Assembly (NCBI GenBank): GCA_965178125.1
Contig: OZ237774.1
Span: 372,001-436,000, forward strand
DNA length: 64,000 nucleotides
Origin: Bilabrum cf. latius
Taxonomy: Eukaryota
Direction: 5' to 3'
The notes under the pieces are model-generated. The model was not told where the DNA came from, searched no databases, and saw only the letters and a list, made by a program, of their open reading frames with translations. The position numbers and the translations under genes are program-made. Below, piece after piece: positions 58,525-63,672 of this stretch (position 1 is the stretch's first letter; each line of letters opens with the position of its first letter).

Positions 58525-58809
58525 ATGAAGCTACATACCTACGATTTTGAAAAGGTTGTTGAGAATTTTCTATTTAAAGCACCCTCAAGACGCAAGAATA
58601 AGAAGTATGATGTTTTTGACGAAAATGATGAATATATTACATCGTTTGGTGATAGGCGGTATTAGCAATTTTACGATAGAATAGGGTATTACAGCCATTT
58701 AAATCATTTAGATACGGACCGCCAATTTAGATACTTCAAACGACACGGTATCGAAGTAAAACCAAGAACCCCAAAGTTCTTCTCACATTTTTACCTTTGG
58801 AGTTCATAA
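58525..58809 (+). CDS. Tlr6F-like (DUF5754-type) small conserved protein of virophages, PLVs and Polintons, 94 aa
   Basis: SRRKNKKYDVF...ITSFGDRRY[TAG]QFYD...HLDTDRQFRYFKRH...PKFFSHFYLW; ends in TAA. Absent from the ORF track because of the TAG at 58663. Confidence 0.8.
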
Positions 58810-59340
58810 ATGACACGTCAATAAATACACTAATTCATCAGGATTTAATGTATGTTTCTTACAAACCTTATCCACCCACTTTTTATACTAATCAGCGTTT
58901 TTTCCCCTATTCCAAAGACGAACTATACAATGTCTCCCGCAGGTTGCTATATCCATTCCATCCGCCTAAAACTAATATGGGTTATAGTCAATCTTATACG
59001 GAGAATGATACATTAAATATATTAACTCAGGGTCTTCATAAAAACGTTTCCGCACGCTTTCACTCATTGTGTGCTATTGCCTATCAGGACGAATTCCATA
59101 ACTGTCAAAGAAGTATATTGTTTTATTACGCTTAAATAAGCACACCCAGTGTCCAGAATTTATTTCTTCTTGGTATAGAATGATACAACAATTACAACGA
59201 CTAAATAATCCATCAATACTATTGTACTATCCTAATTCTGTATATGGAACGATGTTTACCGACGTAGGAAGAAACCCCTTAATATTTGGTGGAGTTTGGA
59301 GGAGAACACGAATATCACTATCGCTAAGAGCATAATCCAT
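58804..59340 (-). CDS. Virophage maturation cysteine protease (adenain/Ulp1-like clan CE), 178 aa
   Basis: MDYALSDSDI...IILYQEEINSGHWVCLFK...IYFFDSYGIRPD...YNPY[TAG]F[TAG]ADGMDIATCGRHCIVR gives the His, Asp, Gln, Cys catalytic set. Five in-frame TAGs; ends in TGA. Confidence 0.92.
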
Positions 59341-59529
59341 ATATATTTATTATAGAAACATATATTGGGGGAGATGAATTCTCTTAACCACTATTTAAGC
59401 GTAGAAGTATTTCTACAAAATCCGTTTTGGAATTTGTGGATAGCATAAAAGACAATCATTCAAAATAAGTTTTCAACAAAAAGACAAAACACTTTAGAAA
59501 AAATAAAAACATATAGTAAATACACTAAA

Positions 59530-60432
59530 ATGGCTCATTTTTCTTGGAAGGAAACTACAAAATCAACACCCATCGCATATGACACTCACGGAAAACGTAT
59601 TTTATACACGGCGGAAAACACAGACAACCAATTTGGAGATGATAGTATGTCATTTTAGGATTTTCAAGTATCATCACTTACAGGGAAACGATTTCCGCAG
59701 AGGAAAATGGATTTATTAGCACGACACTTAATCAAACAGGTCGAACCCCTAGACGAAGACATCAAATACTTGTATGAAAAAGCATAGGAAAAGAAACATA
59801 AAGAGATTACATTAAAATAGGGTGAATTCCAATCATTACCAAATTTAAACGGAAGAGAGGTAATATATATCACCGCACCATCAGGTGCTGGGAAGTCTAC
59901 TTGGGTTTCCAAGTATGCTAAGAATTATCATAGAATGTTTCCAAACAGGAGAATTATTTTATTTTCACGAGTATAGTAGGATAAAGTCTTAGATGAAGTG
60001 AAAGGACTGAAAAGGATTATTTTAAATGAGGAACTGGTGGAGAACCCGATTGATATTCATTAGGAATTAAGGGACGCCTTAGTAATCTTGGATGATATTG
60101 ATACAATCAAAGATAAGAAGTTAAGGGAAGCCCTCAATCATTTACAGGATGAAATATTATAGGTTGGAAGACATTCAAATACTTCTGTATTAATCACAAG
60201 TCATTTATCTACCAACTATAAAAGTACCCGAATTATTCTTGCGGAAAGTCATAAGTTCGTTATATTCCCTTAGTGTTCTTCCGCACATTCTCTAAGGTAT
60301 TTACTAAAAAATTATATAGGACTTGAGAAACAAGAAATCTCTAAAGTCTTAAAAATGCCTTCTAGGTGGGTATGTGTCCACAGGAATTACCCGAGGTATT
60401 TATTAGGAGAAAAGTAGGCTTACCTTATGTAA
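59530..60432 (+). CDS. A32-like FtsK/HerA DNA-packaging ATPase, 300 aa
   Basis: Walker A IYITAPSGAGKSTW, Walker B LVILDDID, GRHSNTSVLITSH, TRIILAESH and MPSRWVCV. Nine in-frame TAGs; ends in TAA. Confidence 0.93.
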
Positions 60433-60461
60433 TTTTGGTCAAACTTTTTCTAAAAGTTTCT

Positions 60462-60701
60462 TTAAATAATATTCTATTCTCGTATATACCGACTTGCTTG
60501 AGGTAAACTCATACCAGTCTACTACATCACCATTTTTACAAGTTTATTGCGGCGTTTCATTTTGGCGCTCACTTTCCGCTTAGGCTTACTACGGCCTTTT
60601 CCAACTTTAATATGTTTGTTTTTAACTCTATTTAAAGCGTCTTGTTCTTTCTATAGCGCGAGTTGTTTGGTTCTCTATATAATCCACTTATCAATATCCA
60701 T
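60462..60701 (-). CDS. Small basic putative virion core/DNA-binding protein, 79 aa
   Basis: With TAG=Q the C-terminus reads ...GKGRSKPKRKVSAKMKRRNKLVKMVMQQTGMSLPQASRYIREQNII, resembling the R..LVK..M...G.SL..AS.Y motif I recall from virophage core proteins. Preceded by TATAGTATAATG; ends in TAA. Confidence 0.65.
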
Positions 60702-60761
60702 TATACTATACATGAACATAATTTATTTTTTGGCCAAGCTTTTTATAAAAGCTTATAGTAA

Positions 60762-61943
60762 ATGAAAACTGCTAAAGTGAATGCTCTTATTCAGCAAGCC
60801 CTAGAGAGGGAACTGGACAATGCTAAAATGTTAGATTTATAGGCAAGAGACGACGTAGATTTAGAAACAGAATATAGTGATTTTATAAGGAAAAGGGCAA
60901 AAATTGAACGATTAAAAGAAAGTGGAAGGTATGGAACTCCAGCGTAGAGAAAATAGGCAGACCAAAGCAACGAGGAAATCATATCTAAGTCAATATCTGG
61001 TATAATGAAAGGTATTATTGAGGGTAAAAATGTAAGTCCAGCAGTGAAAGCATTGAAGGATTTTGTTGGTAATATCAATATGTCTCCACAAATGAAGCAA
61101 CAACTCGCCCGTCAATACGTTAACATAGAGAGGTTTCAAAGGAAAGGATACGAAGGACTGCAGAGAGTTCCAGCTGAGGATAGAAAACAACTCTTAGAAT
61201 TAGGGAAAGTTATATAGGAGGCATCCGGACAACGAATACCGTAGGGAATGTTGGGAATTGATTAGTAGCCAACATCTTTACAAACACCTGCTCGAACAAC
61301 AAGAAGAAACACGTTTTCCGCTCCAACACAAGTACAGCTTCCAAAAAGGTCTTCGGGTGCGTATAAATAGTTATTGGAAAGAGCCAGAGAAAGAATACAA
61401 CAAGACAGACCCTTAACTGAAAAACAACGAATAGCGTGGGATTTAGAATAGGGAAAGAATTTCTCACAAAGAACATCACAGGGGCAGACAAATATGTTTT
61501 AGCATTTTCAAGAGGGTTCAAGTAGTAATGCGTCAAAAACATCAAAAGACTTAGATGCCATATTAGCCGCAGCGAGCAATGAAAGACCACTACCGCAAGG
61601 AAGCACTCCGGGGGCGTGGGACCCAGAAACTGGTGAGTACTATGATATGCCGAGTAGGATGGAAATTGAGCAGGGAATTGGAAAACGTGCTACTAGACCT
61701 GTGTAGCGATTTACGGGGTTTAGTCCGCCCTATGGAATGTAGTAGCCTGATTTAGAAGACCCACCATCACGCGCAATGACTGTAGAAGAAAGTGGAAAAC
61801 CAAAAAAGGGGAAAGGATTAACAGGTGGAAAAAGAATTATCTATGATACAGCAATGAATGTAGCCAAGAAAGTAAAAGGAAGCACTAAAAATATTCATCA
61901 TTAGGTTGCTATGGAACTATTACATCTTTTAGGAAAAGATTGA
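60762..61943 (+). CDS. Uncharacterised virophage protein, 393 aa (putative protease-processed core protein)
   Basis: Open from TATAGTAA-ATG to TGA 61941-61943 only if more than a dozen TAGs are sense. Contains KGKGLTGGKR near the C-terminus. Confidence 0.7.
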
Positions 61944-62008
61944 CCAAAACCTCTTATATACATCTTTTGGCAACCTGATAAAAATTATATCTGTGGATAT
62001 ACTATAAA

Positions 62009-62500
62009 ATGTCAGTCTCAAATCTTCTATCTAAGAACAGTCTAGACCTTATGTCTCAAACTATTACGTGTAATGTTGTGAGTAGCGACGCAATTAAAGT
62101 GTCCGCAATTACTAACTCTACGGGAGCAGTCATAGGCAATCCAAGTATTGAATTCAAAGACGGAGAGCCTTATATGGAGTGGGGTGAAACTGTTCTACGG
62201 TTTGGAAAAAACGGAGCGTCTGCTGGTTGTCAGTTCAGTATGAGCGAAGAAGGAGAAAGATGCGATATTTCACTAGTTGGTTCATTCAAGACTTCTCAAG
62301 AGGGTGTTGTTGGGCTGAGTGAGGTTGCTGGAGCTACATTGGCTGACGCTTCTACCCCTATTAATACGTCAGCAGAGCGAAAGTTCAAGGGCGCTTTAGT
62401 GTATAATGGAAGCGACAACGATGTCTATGTGGCGATTGGCAGTTCTTCTACATCTAGTTGGAAATCCTTAGTGTCAGGTTCACTTATTACACCATCTTAA
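62009..62500 (+). CDS. Uncharacterised virophage protein, 163 aa (possible fibre/spike-like structural protein)
   Basis: Intact ORF ending in TAA, directly upstream of the penton. The N-terminus MSVSNLLSKN resembles N-termini of virophage fibre-like proteins (recollection, unverified). Confidence 0.55.
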   Translation: MSVSNLLSKNSLDLMSQTITCNVVSSDAIKVSAITNSTGAVIGNPSIEFKDGEPYMEWGETVLRFGKNGASAGCQFSMSEEGERCDISLVGSFKTSQEGVVGLSEVAGATLADASTPINTSAERKFKGALVYNGSDNDVYVAIGSSSTSSWKSLVSGSLITPS

Positions 62501-62556
62501 TTATACTTTAGAAAAGTAATCAAACCCACCCCATAATTATAAACGTCTATAGTAAA

Positions 62557-63672
62557 ATGAGTTCTCCAGACCGATTTTACATTACCGCAAACATACGAAA
62601 TAACGAAGATACTTTCCAACCAGCGACCTATAGCGAAACCCGCAAGTAGCCATTATTAGATAAGGATGTTGGTGATTATACGATGTCAGTATTCCGGTTT
62701 TCCATAAGCACCAATTCAATACCTTTATGGGTTCCACACATAGAAACCGATAAAGTGAAAAATCCATCTTCAAATCCTAATCAAACGGTGTATAGAATAA
62801 GCATTACAGATGAAGACGGAGTAAGTTTGTGGACCTCAAGCATTCAGTGGAGACCCTAGTTAACAGGGGAAAACCAACCATCTTTTTCCAATCCTATGTA
62901 GTTTGTTCCTTATTATTATATGTATTCCGTGTAGCATTTTGTTGATTTATTCAACGAAACCATATAGAATGCTTTATCAGCGGATATTACATCAGTTCCG
63001 GTTTTACTCTTTAAAGATGGAAAGTTCAGTTTAGTAGCAAACCCCGATTACGACGAGGAAAACTCAGGACAGAAATTTAAATTAGTGTTGAATGAAGCCC
63101 TTAACGAACTGATGACGGGTTTTCCTATGGAACGAATGGATATCCAAGATGACGACTTATACGCCAGTATTCTATTCAAAACCCTAGGAACCAATGTTTT
63201 ATTCGATGATGGCTCTTCTGTTGGAAAATATGAACCTTAGGCATACTTCGAGGGAAACCCAACGGGAGACTACAGATTAATGATGACCTAGGAACGAGGG
63301 AGTTTAGTGTAGTTTTAGATTTTTCGCGGAATAGTTTTCACATCTTCAAGTCTTCCAGTGAGGAGTGAGGCAATATCCTAGAAATCCGCCTATGGACAAT
63401 CCACTAATACAGTTCAAAATTCAGGTTCAGGGACCGAGAGTTTATTAGTGGATATGGATTGTGTATTAGATGATACTGAAACAGTTAATTAGCAGGTTCT
63501 TCAATACCAGCCCCATATTCTCCACGAAATTGATTTTTTAGATACACATTCAGTAGATAGGATTTAGTTTAATCTATATTGGAAAGACAATTATTCAAAT
63601 CTAAGACCTCTTTATTTACGCCACGGAAGTGTGAGTGTGAAGTTTTTATTTAAGAAACGGAAAGGACTTTGA
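62557..63672 (+). CDS. Virophage minor capsid protein (penton), 371 aa
   Basis: YSETRK[TAG]PLL...DYTMSVFRFSISTNSIPLWVPHI...NPNQTVYRISI...IVFTSSSLPVRSE...LYWKDNYSNLRPLYL..GSVSVKFLFKK. Many in-frame TAGs; ends in TGA; immediately upstream of the MCP. Confidence 0.88.

Follow-up and report, generated by a model that had tools for sequence, protein, structure and literature searches.

The low-GC block at the right end of a 64,000-nt stretch of Bilabrum cf. latius DNA (contig OZ237774.1; the window) raises the question of whether virophage genes interrupted by TAG codons are remnants of a dead virus or the intact genes of a virus that shares the code of its host. The block, from about 57.4 kb to the end of the window, very probably represents the leftmost 6.6 kb of the genome of a Sputnik-type virophage with intact genes, in which UAG encodes glutamine and only UAA and UGA terminate, next to flanking eukaryotic genes with the same code. 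The window holds the left part of the element only; integrase, right end and target-site duplication lie outside its view.

Virophage genes open under a TAG-sense code

The region 58525-63999 has 33-43% GC and adjoins host DNA of 60% GC. It carries genes for a cysteine protease, a packaging ATPase and a Sputnik-type penton, and the start of a major capsid gene. The features of the window are:

7598..8542, + strand: host RPN11/PSMD14 gene, single TAG at 7838-7840 (codon 81)
53246..57355, + strand: flanking host gene (CLU domain and TPR repeats), 9 in-frame TAG, TGA stop at 57353-57355
57357..58520: left end region, non-coding, lying between the stop of the host gene and the first gene of the virophage
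57791-57868: short tandem repeats within the left end region
57957-58019, 58067-58129, 58268-58330: three 63-nt direct repeats within the left end region
58525..58809, + strand: small ORF, 94 aa, 1 TAG, ends TAA, marginal match to Pfam DUF5754
58804..59340, - strand: virophage cysteine protease (CE clan, adenain/Ulp1 fold), 178 aa, 5 TAG, ends TGA
59530..60432, + strand: DNA-packaging ATPase (P-loop), 300 aa, 9 TAG, ends TAA
60462..60719, - strand: small basic ORF, 85 aa, 5 TAG, ends TAA
60762..61943, + strand: orf393, Gln/Lys/Arg-rich, 14 TAG, ends TGA
62009..62500, + strand: orf163, no TAG, ends TAA
62557..63672, + strand: penton (minor capsid) protein, Sputnik V18/19 type, 371 aa, 12 TAG, ends TGA
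63751..63999, + strand: major capsid protein gene, first 83 codons, no TAG here, runs off the window
58372+, 58508-, 59512+, 60702-, 60754+, 61998-, 62548+ (spanning 58372..62556): seven copies of TATAGTAWA, candidate promoter motif

Across the left end region, GC drops from 0.55 to 0.2-0.35; its part at 57358-57868 may belong to the virophage or be a separate high-copy host repeat. The ORF at 58525-58809 barely passes the DUF5754 cut-off (27.6 bits; cut-off, 27.4) and is probably the gene that the earlier note had called 'Tlr6F-like'. The product of orf393 is possibly a virion core protein; the ORF is conserved at 43% identity in a metagenome relative (contig L082, positions 6373-7806). The N-terminus of orf163 resembles by eye that of a 381-aa fibre-like ORF of L082, a likeness to which BLAST gives no support. 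The penton matches Pfam PF21507 at 41.3 bits (cut-off, 27) and PDB 3j26_N at 1.7e-13, and its residues 4-368 align to residues 3-362 of the homologue P0050. The major capsid start matches Pfam Sputnik_MCP_1st below the cut-off (E 0.0064) and shares about 70% identity across 82 residues with the beginning of the L082 capsid protein.

The genes are intact. The eight ORFs comprise 1,674 codons with 46 in-frame TAG; frameshifts are absent, as are internal TAA and TGA, whereas 89 TAA and 92 TGA (181 in all) occur in the two alternative frames. All seven complete genes terminate in TAA (four) or TGA (three). Under the standard code, the sole correct virophage ORF of at least 80 aa is orf163; translation of TAG as glutamine recovers every gene, and ORFs of at least 120 aa then cover 81% of 58401-64000, compared with 25% under the standard code. 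These results bear out the earlier note, which had held that the genes are full-length and frameshift-free only if TAG is sense, that they end in TAA or TGA at plausible C-termini and that standard ORF calling misses them; gene lengths fit those of homologues. Its counts for the protease (five TAG) and the ATPase (nine TAG and about seven CAA/CAG; 4 CAA and 3 CAG on recount) were reproduced, and the profile searches that it had proposed identified the penton above, and the capsid start below, the respective cut-off.

TAG is read as glutamine

When the residues aligned to TAG were tabulated, glutamine was the maximum-likelihood residue in the window genes (26 columns; glutamate, the runner-up, at -2.5 nats), in the L082 genes (23 columns; glutamate at -4.1 nats) and in the 49 pooled columns (glutamate at -6.6 nats). 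Tryptophan, which TGG-to-TAG mutation would predict, accounts for 3 of the 2,220 aligned residues.

The protease provides the most specific site. Residues H64, D86, Q125 and C134 are invariant in 24/24 sequences, and Q125, the invariant active-site glutamine, is encoded by the TAG codon at 58966-58968 (minus strand) and aligns to glutamine in 58/58 homologues. An AlphaFold2 model with glutamine at the TAG sites has a pLDDT of 94.3, and its Foldseek matches (adenovirus protease, Ulp1 and OtDUB; E 2e-5 to 1e-3) indicate a CE-clan fold. The ATPase has a Walker A motif APSGAGKST and a Walker B motif VILDD, and its 300 aa correspond to the 302 aa of the homologue P0001 at 100% coverage; its codon 211 (TAG, 60160-60162) aligns to glutamine in the four closest homologues, and the full alignment has E 38 and Q 10 at this column. 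In the penton, glutamine occurs more often than any other residue at TAG columns 31, 101, 126, 137 and 245, and in 115 of 150 homologues at column 245. A penton fragment that is 83% identical (P0051) has glutamine at TAG 126 and TAG 228 of the window gene, and ends exactly at TAG 245.

Host ORFs of 1,369-2,879 aa in the window likewise stay open only if TAG is sense. In RPN11, the one TAG codon aligns to the universally conserved glutamine of the FAMPQ motif (Q in human PSMD14), and another host TAG, from an ABC transporter gene, lies at a variable alignment position; the one conserved site suggests that host TAG also encodes glutamine. Together, the data support the view of the element as a virus of virophage type with intact genes in which TAG is a glutamine codon, as it is in the host.

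Recoded relatives, selection and rival histories

The earlier note had suggested mining metagenomes under a TAG-sense code, and this yielded relatives (L081-L085) whose ORF cover rises from 0.27-0.45 under the standard code to 0.73-0.97 once TAG is translated. Their proteins are 43-61% identical to those of the window element, and they use the same code. L082, a contig of 15 kb, has inverted repeats at or close to each of its ends and lacks flanking host DNA. It encodes a full virophage gene set (integrase, primase-helicase, protein-primed polymerase and capsid module), and its capsid protein matches both Sputnik capsid Pfam domains and PDB 3j26_A (2.8e-34). Its genes contain 53 TAG, 100 CAA and 79 CAG, and no internal TAA or TGA. 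At 53 aligned sites with TAG in either the window element or L082, orthologues have TAG/TAG at 4, TAG/CAA or TAG/CAG at 15 and TAG/other at 34. Recoding as a trait of a lineage, more than a single accident, is thereby supported, as the earlier note had proposed. No relatives with a TAG code were found in IMG/VR, where 80/80 fetched ATPase relatives use the standard code. Ordinary gene calling gives full-length proteins for P0001, P0003 and P0004, the nearest relatives in the ATPase tree, so this clade mixes TAG users with apparently TAG-free members, and its recoding need not have a single origin.

Purifying selection acts on the copies of the window element and on L082/L083. Among 37 substitutions analysed from copy variants (of 40 listed out of 114), 25 are coding, 17 of them synonymous and 8 non-synonymous. 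TAG and CAG are exchanged in both directions (TAG>CAG at 60840, CAG>TAG at 63493), the kind of exchange for which the earlier note had proposed to compare copies. Between L082 and L083 (2,891 codons), there are 130 synonymous and 56 non-synonymous changes and no new stops. A C-to-T excess is absent from runs X2 (C>T+G>A, 18; T>C+A>G, 13) and X5 (24 and 23).

The reading of the TAGs as nonsense mutations in a decaying endogenous virophage, produced by RIP-like C-to-T damage or by TGG-to-TAG change, would account for the breakage of nearly every gene under the standard code. It is nevertheless virtually untenable, and was rejected, given the absence of internal TAA, TGA and frameshifts, the alignment of TAG to glutamine and rarely to tryptophan, the balanced transitions and the 17:8 synonymous bias; moreover, damage converting three quarters of CAG to TAG would have made many TAA from CAA, and none is seen. 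It is also very unlikely that TAG is sense with another residue, or is read through at low efficiency. Glutamate is indeed second-best, and homologues are rich in E/D at several TAG columns of the ATPase, but TAG encodes the invariant catalytic glutamine of the protease, glutamine dominates penton columns 101, 126 and 245, the RPN11 TAG aligns to glutamine, and TAG is exchanged with CAA/CAG at the 15 orthologous sites as well as among copies; if 46 sites in essential genes depended on read-through, hardly any full-length protein would be made. Somewhat less improbable, though still unlikely, is passive recoding in place, by which a standard-code virophage integrated, ceased to be a virus and had its CAG drift silently to TAG, with no recoded virus lineage. 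Copies do differ by TAG/CAG swaps, which are silent, and in the runs the element has a multi-copy or repeat-like character; no virion or free form of it was observed. Against this, host composition pushes the opposite way (GC3 0.72 and TAG 9% of Gln codons in GC-rich host genes; 0.33 and 45% in the element), the relatives at 43-61% identity on separate metagenome contigs also use TAG, one of them is the 15-kb contig free of host DNA, and both sets are under purifying selection.

No tRNA genes were found in the element part within the window or in the metagenome relatives, suggesting that the mRNAs are decoded by host machinery, probably a UAG-reading tRNA-Gln and a UAG-blind release factor. 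In such a cell, CAA, CAG and TAG would all be synonymous, an AT-biased virus would drift toward heavy TAG use, and TAG would never be usable as a gene end. Such a virus would be confined to hosts with a compatible code, and would presumably depend on a giant virus, which the earlier note expects to be code-compatible as well.

The window is contiguous over the junction, and this assembly suggests true chromosomal integration. That a free or episomal virophage was co-sequenced and joined to the host contig via the repeat 57358-57868, leaving the recoding real and the integration not, is unlikely but by no means far-fetched. None of the four sequencing runs examined has a contig bridging host gene and virophage genes, contigs of X2, X5 and X7 break at 57357-57387, and the summed word depth of the virophage part in X2 is about 10-20 times that of the host flank (a value that is not a copy number), so such joining is possible. 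Also, X7 has 57358-57860 beside several different flanks with virophage genes absent, and X5 has the virophage with the host flank absent. A multi-copy integrated element would, however, yield equal contig breaks and depth, and L082 has an rve-type integrase with a chromodomain, indicating that the lineage is probably able to integrate.

Comparison with known recoded and virophage systems

Recoding shared by an endogenous virus and its host is not unprecedented, and the earlier note's statement that no case had been described does not hold: endogenous viral elements of Streblomastix strix employ the host's TAA/TAG=Gln table, which the authors take as a sign of long-term virus-host association (Bellas et al., 2023; PMC10120064). 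Those elements are likewise small integrating DNA viruses of the polinton/virophage supergroup in a protist genome, with genes open only under the host's stop-to-Gln code (PMC10120064). They differ in having an oxymonad host, both TAA and TAG as glutamine codons and a capsid gene of the 'Metamonada' polinton-like group (PMC10120064), whereas in the window element TAG alone is reassigned, TAA and TGA terminate and the capsid genes are of Sputnik type. A residue-level test, codon exchange and selection analysis, given here, were not met in the main text of that paper, as far as accessed (PMC10120064). New here are the metagenome relatives with the same code, one of them a genome-length contig with inverted repeats at, or close to, its two ends.

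In Iotanema spirale, UAG encodes glutamine, UAA is kept as a stop and UAG is a minor codon, at about 8% of Gln codons, similar to the 9% in host genes of the window; the word 'virus' occurs 0 times in the accessible text of that paper (Panek et al., 2017; PMC5304391). Giant-virus gene calling improves with a single stop codon reassigned, and non-standard-code hosts have been suggested (GVClass, PMC11721457; PMC13524828); the 2026 catalogue GVMAGs V2 applies alternative codes including code 15 (PMC13524828). These are also eukaryotic DNA viruses with one stop reassigned and code 15 among those tried, but the results are catalogue-level statistics, the hosts are not known and the word 'virophage' occurs 0 times in the accessible text (PMC11721457; PMC13524828). 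In the window, unlike in these catalogues, host and virus codes are visible side by side.

The crAss-like and Lak phages also use TAG as glutamine (code 15), with in-frame TAG in viral genes. Recoded phages have a standard-code host and their own suppressor tRNA, and often only late genes are affected, whereas in the present case the host too has the altered code, recoding affects all genes and the part of the element seen lacks a tRNA gene.

Like Sputnik/mavirus-type virophages (PDB 3j26, 6g43), the element encodes a protease, a penton, a packaging ATPase and a double jelly-roll capsid protein. It shares with them a low GC content, compact genes and a conserved short motif preceding genes; in code it differs from the virophage relatives fetched from IMG/VR. 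In sequence, the L082 capsid is nearer to Sputnik V20 (2.8e-34) than to mavirus (6e-7), whereas its replication genes look mavirus-like. Mavirus, like L082, encodes an integrase of rve type and a protein-primed polymerase, and endogenous mavirus-like elements exist in Cafeteria. The motif TATAGTAWA may act as a shared promoter: six of its seven copies lie on the coding strand and precede a gene start by no more than about 30 nt, and the seventh (58372) lies about 145 nt upstream of the first virophage gene. The window has 8 matches (0.07 expected), and L082 has 11 (0.27 expected).

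Gene content and virophage character of the low-GC block

GC content is about 60% in the window up to about 57.4 kb and 33-39% from 58 kb to the window end, falling from the point at which the last host gene ends (57355). Under the standard code, orf163 is the sole correct ORF of at least 80 aa within the low-GC block, in keeping with the near-invisibility to ordinary ORF calling that the earlier note had claimed. Once TAG is read as a residue, a compact gene set becomes visible.

Genes of the virophage element (window coordinates)
58525-58809: 94-aa ORF, open with TAG as sense
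58804-59340, minus strand: protease, 178 aa, with H64/D86/Q125/C134 and a predicted fold
59530-60432: ATPase, 300 aa, with Walker A and B motifs
60462-60719, minus strand: 85-aa ORF, open with TAG as sense
60762-61943: orf393, with a homologue in L082 (a metagenome relative)
62009-62500: orf163, no TAG
62557-63672: penton, 371 aa, Pfam PF21507
63751-63999: capsid gene, first 83 codons, continuing past the window end

The 1,674 codons of these eight ORFs include 46 in-frame TAG, and TAA and TGA occur in frame only where the seven complete genes end (TAA four times, TGA three times); the remaining two frames of the same ORFs contain 89 TAA and 92 TGA. The C-termini are consistent with those of homologues. 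The genes are therefore intact only with TAG as sense, without internal TAA/TGA or frameshifts, as had been proposed, and the TAG counts first reported for the ATPase (nine, versus seven CAA/CAG) and the protease (five) were exact. TAA, TGA and frameshifts would be expected in a decaying element; none is present in the 1,674 codons. The glutamine codons of the element comprise 46 TAG, 15 CAG and 41 CAA, and the rate of C-to-T damage implied by 46 TAG against 15 CAG would have produced many TAA from CAA. As none is seen, damage is rejected.

The penton matches the Pfam model of Sputnik V18/19 (PF21507) at 41.3 bits, over a cut-off of 27, as well as the Sputnik minor virion protein (PDB 3j26_N, 1.7e-13), and has 1,484 homologues at E<=0.001. 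The capsid start, only 83 codons long in the window, matches Pfam Sputnik_MCP_1st under the cut-off of 27 (E 0.0064, 16 bits). With the beginning of the L082 capsid protein it shares about 70% identity; that protein contains both Sputnik capsid Pfam domains (5.5e-26 and 6e-26) and matches Sputnik V20 (PDB 3j26_A) at 2.8e-34 and the mavirus capsid at 6e-7. The ATPase has the features of an FtsK/HerA-type packaging ATPase (Walker A and B; invariant G119, G121, K122, D188 and D189), with only generic AAA matches, under cut-off, in Pfam. Its 49 homologues are all unnamed or hypothetical except for one evident mislabel, and relatives occur on 80 virophage-like IMG/VR contigs (80 of the 80 compared loci). 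No giant-virus gene was found within the window.

In an alignment of the protease with 23 homologues, H64, D86, Q125 and C134 are invariant. The protein has no match in Pfam, and a profile search against PDB returned only SdeA at a non-significant E of 0.78. WD40 matches in a single-sequence PDB search were spurious, being clustered around an X-masked stretch. As the sequence-only PDB searches were not significant, the class was decided by fold search: the predicted model (pLDDT 94.3) matches adenovirus protease, Ulp1, OtDUB and ASFV pS273R in Foldseek (E 2e-5 to 3e-3, TM 0.4-0.5). By this model, the protein is a predicted adenain-like cysteine maturation protease of the adenain/Ulp1 (CE-clan) fold.

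Identity of the residue encoded by TAG

The residues opposite TAG were tabulated with TAG masked as X: six window proteins and 11 L082 proteins were aligned by tblastn to 80 standard-code virophage loci, and candidate residues were scored by substitution frequencies drawn from the same alignments. Gln is the maximum-likelihood residue for the 26 TAG columns of the window genes (Glu, -2.5 nats) and for the 23 of the L082 genes (Glu, -4.1 nats), as well as for all 49 columns pooled (Glu, -6.6; Lys, -14.0 nats). An origin of TAG from TGG does not hold, since Trp accounts for 3 of the 2,220 residues aligned to TAG columns. Single sites agree: protease codon 125, the invariant Gln, is TAG in the window, and all 58 homologues have Q in its column; among 150 penton homologues, Q is found at TAG columns 245, 126 and 101 in 115, 73 and 62 cases, respectively; and ATPase TAG 211 aligns to Q in the four nearest homologues (4/4). 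P0051, a protein fragment sharing 83% identity with the penton, carries Q opposite window TAG 126 and 228 and terminates precisely at the position of TAG 245; termination at a TAG by standard gene calling would give this end point. By these alignments the element genes follow a code 15-like reading, in which UAG specifies Gln, with UAA and UGA as stops.

Variation among copies of the element bears on the same question. Public contigs from four coded sequencing runs, compared over 56000-64000, include numerous near-identical variants. In the 37 substitutions analysed (from 40 listed of 114 reported), 25 are coding, of which 17 are synonymous and eight non-synonymous. TAG and CAG are exchanged in both directions (TAG>CAG at 60840, CAG>TAG at 63493), and transitions are balanced both ways, so that an RIP-like C-to-T excess does not hold.

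The host genes show a comparable pattern. Five host frames of 1,369-2,879 aa, with 6-17 TAG each, are open only with TAG as sense; these include two hybrid histidine kinases and a CLU/TPR gene that ends with TGA at 57355, directly before the low-GC block. TAG, CAA and CAG number 47, 97 and 389 in seven host ORFs, and host stop-to-stop frames end in TGA (10) or TAA (two). In the RPN11 gene, which has no intron, the single TAG stands opposite the Gln of the FAMPQ motif conserved in human PSMD14; another host TAG, that of an ABC transporter gene, is at a variable position, and just one TAG/TAG site is conserved between the two histidine-kinase paralogues. From these alignments the host appears to share the UAG=Gln code, with Gln identity resting on one good site (RPN11). 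The sole tRNA gene within the window is a tRNA-Trp(CCA) at 42993-43065.

Recoded relatives, codon use and precedents

In all 80 IMG/VR loci with an ATPase relative the code is the standard one, and ORF cover barely rises with TAG as sense. In-frame stops in core-gene alignments to IMG/VR loci are nearly absent (ATPase with the window query, 0/80; protease, 0/60; capsid, 0/54; penton, 1/37). A scan of 2.9 million IMG/VR contigs yielded no relative of the window penton or the L082 capsid protein, and the latter has no match in INPHARED. With the penton as query, an exhaustive protein search gave five short fragments of high similarity; two of these (P0054 and P0059) lie on contigs of 10-15 kb, so that the shortness of these two is not due to contig ends. 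Public protein sets contain the penton and capsid genes only as TAG-cut fragments. A first metagenome scan, queried with a two-sequence penton alignment, gave no match. The DNA behind the penton fragments, with a metagenome scan using fragment P0200, yielded contigs L081-L085 (43-45% GC), whose ORF cover is 0.27-0.45 in the standard code and 0.73-0.97 with TAG as sense; the earlier note had suggested mining metagenomes for contigs of higher coding density under code 15.

The main comparison genome, L082, is a 15,030-bp contig whose first 24 nt reappear in inverted orientation at 14890-14913 and at 14816-14854. Read with TAG as Gln, it encodes an rve integrase, a DUF5906/VapE-type primase-helicase, a protein-primed polymerase, a fibre-like protein, an orf393 homologue, ATPase, protease, penton and a full capsid protein. 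Its 12 ORFs contain 53 TAG and no internal TAA/TGA, and its terminators are TAA (seven) and TGA (six). The integrase (162-1226) has an rve core and, C-terminally, a chromodomain-like stretch (Pfam E 0.0013, under cut-off), which would suggest chromatin-targeted integration.

Identity between window and L082 orthologues is 43-61%, except for the short capsid start at about 70%. In the 53 aligned sites with TAG in either genome, TAG faces TAG at four, CAA/CAG at 15 and other residues at 34. L082 and L083 are 95-97% identical; across 2,891 codons, 130 of the codon changes between them are synonymous and 56 non-synonymous, and none creates a stop. The ATPase tree groups the window and L082 with the protein homologues P0001-P0004 in a six-member clade of strong support (SH-aLRT 99); P0001, P0003 and P0004 of this clade are full-length under ordinary gene calling.

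The motif TATAGTAWA occurs seven times in the element part of the window (58372-62556; 0.07 expected) and 11 times in L082 (150-12961; 0.27 expected). Most genes of the element and of the 55%-identical L082 have it no more than about 30 nt upstream, and between divergent genes it is on both strands (60702 on the minus and 60754 on the plus strand). Judged from its placement, it is a candidate promoter, possibly the helper virus's own, and its sharing by the element and L082 would be compatible with borrowing from a helper.

No tRNA gene is present in the seen part of the element or in L082, so that translation would have to use host machinery. The host's UAG-decoding tRNA-Gln and a UAG-ignoring release factor, neither of them encoded in the window, would translate the element genes; in such a cell, TAG would be an additional Gln codon, unable to terminate, and the choice among Gln codons would then track composition.

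Third-position GC and TAG use
Host genes: GC3 0.72; TAG share of Gln codons 9%
L082: GC3 0.48; TAG share of Gln codons 23%
Element in the window: GC3 0.33; TAG share of Gln codons 45%

Because host GC pressure would favour CAG, heavy use of TAG would reflect AT-biased evolution of the virus under this code; drift within the host chromosome was rejected as its source, since the same pressure would have favoured CAG there. Among single genes, the TAG share of Gln codons is 52-62% in the protease, ATPase and penton of the element, and 8% in the penton, 18% in the capsid and 64% in the ATPase of L082, all on small numbers. TAG is absent from orf163 (62009-62500) and the capsid start (63751-63999). 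One guess is that the most highly expressed genes avoid TAG.

Precedents for such recoding exist. Bellas et al. (2023; PMC10120064) state that in Streblomastix strix the endogenous viral elements follow the TAA/TAG=Gln table of their host, from which a long association was inferred. Other reports describe giant-virus catalogues that now apply alternative codes, code 15 included (PMC11721457, PMC13524828), an ochre-suppressor tRNA, found in a single virophage clade (Paez-Espino et al., 2019; PMC6905037), and UAG-only Gln codes in a few eukaryotes, e.g., Iotanema (PMC5304391). In our literature searches, no virophage with a reassigned stop codon was found beyond the Streblomastix elements and, specifically, no Sputnik-type one; supplements (PMC10120064, PMC13524828) may list recoded elements. 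Nor was a metagenomic virophage genome needing code 15 found, and here too supplements may hold more. The earlier note had proposed a recoded virophage in a UAG=Gln host and was aware of no described case. The code, the intactness of the genes and the existence of relatives uphold the proposal; the absence of precedent was too strong a claim, as the Streblomastix elements (PMC10120064) come before. As far as the searches reach, this is the second reported endogenous small DNA virus sharing its host's non-standard code; what is added are recoded relatives from metagenomes and the blind spot of catalogues.

With 40-50 TAG in essential genes, which would be inexpressible in a standard-code cell, the code should confine the virus, and the same argument might extend to a giant-virus helper. 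A Sputnik-type virophage clade in a closed system of three partners (a UAG=Gln protist, a giant virus and the virophage) with one shared UAG-only code is a serious possibility, if slightly less probable than the contrary. If true, giant-virus helpers would by implication share the code, giant viruses reported to read TAG as Gln would become helper candidates, and the code would both restrict host range and gene flow and conceal such virophages from catalogues that rely on standard gene calling. Here the codes of host and virus can be read on one DNA stretch, with evidence from residues, codon exchange and selection. A rare code in common is a strong sequence-only label of the host: L082-type metagenome virophages become assignable to UAG=Gln hosts, and the same test may pair them with giant viruses. 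Re-screening with code 15 should yield more such viruses from the catalogue blind spot. The TAG share that an AT-rich virus reaches in a cell with UAG=Gln, up to nearly half of Gln codons, offers a read-out of how quickly a stop codon, once freed, comes into use, and also measures how irreversibly the virus is locked to its host's code.

The host junction and neighbouring repeats

The window's own sequence is contiguous across the host-virophage junction, on the left side of the element only, and it is on this contiguity that integration into host DNA rests; the right end and any integrase lie past position 64,000. No contig of the four coded runs crosses the junction; contigs from runs X2, X5 and X7 break at 57357-57387. 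In X7, the host flank and 57358-57860 are present without any virophage gene, and several different sequences are joined at 57357; in X5, the virophage is present at high identity and the host flank is missing. Coverage is blank on 56000-57334 in X5 and on 57869-64000 in X7, which are hints only, and summed depth is far greater over the element than over the host flank. A multi-copy mobile element, inserted beside a high-copy repeat or ending in one, is compatible with the contig breaks, the X7 and X5 patterns and the depth. An assembly join of virophage to host DNA is compatible with all of these as well, and the two explanations fit equally.

The segment 57357-57868 behaves as a high-copy repeat in public contigs; it could be the virophage end, ends of related elements standing alone, or a host repeat that adjoins the virophage but is unrelated to it. 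Tandem repeats of 11-12 nt lie at 57791-57868, and three non-coding 63-nt direct repeats (87-100% identical) lie in 57957-58330, before the first virophage gene. The repeats at 57791-58330 have no similarity to the ends of L082.

Repeats are also found further upstream in host DNA. The two hybrid histidine-kinase/response-regulator paralogues are convergent (24672-33311, plus; 33644-40111, minus; 2,879 and 2,155 codons, stop to stop) and have long near-identical stretches, divergent low-complexity inserts and one TAG in common. The region 40001-44200, of lower GC (0.54-0.55), carries the tRNA-Trp(CCA) gene and one TATAGTATA at 43202; inverted partial copies of this region, 89-95% identical, are located at 47279-49009, and repeats of about 100 nt at 49567-50648. 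No virophage gene fragment was found in 40001-44200, 47279-49009 or 49567-50648.

In the comparison of runs X5 and X10, a second coded organism (B) has virophage genes mostly at least 99% identical to those of the window, without the adjoining host gene, and another run of that study has next to none of the element's words. This pattern is at most a hint of mobility or presence/absence variation.
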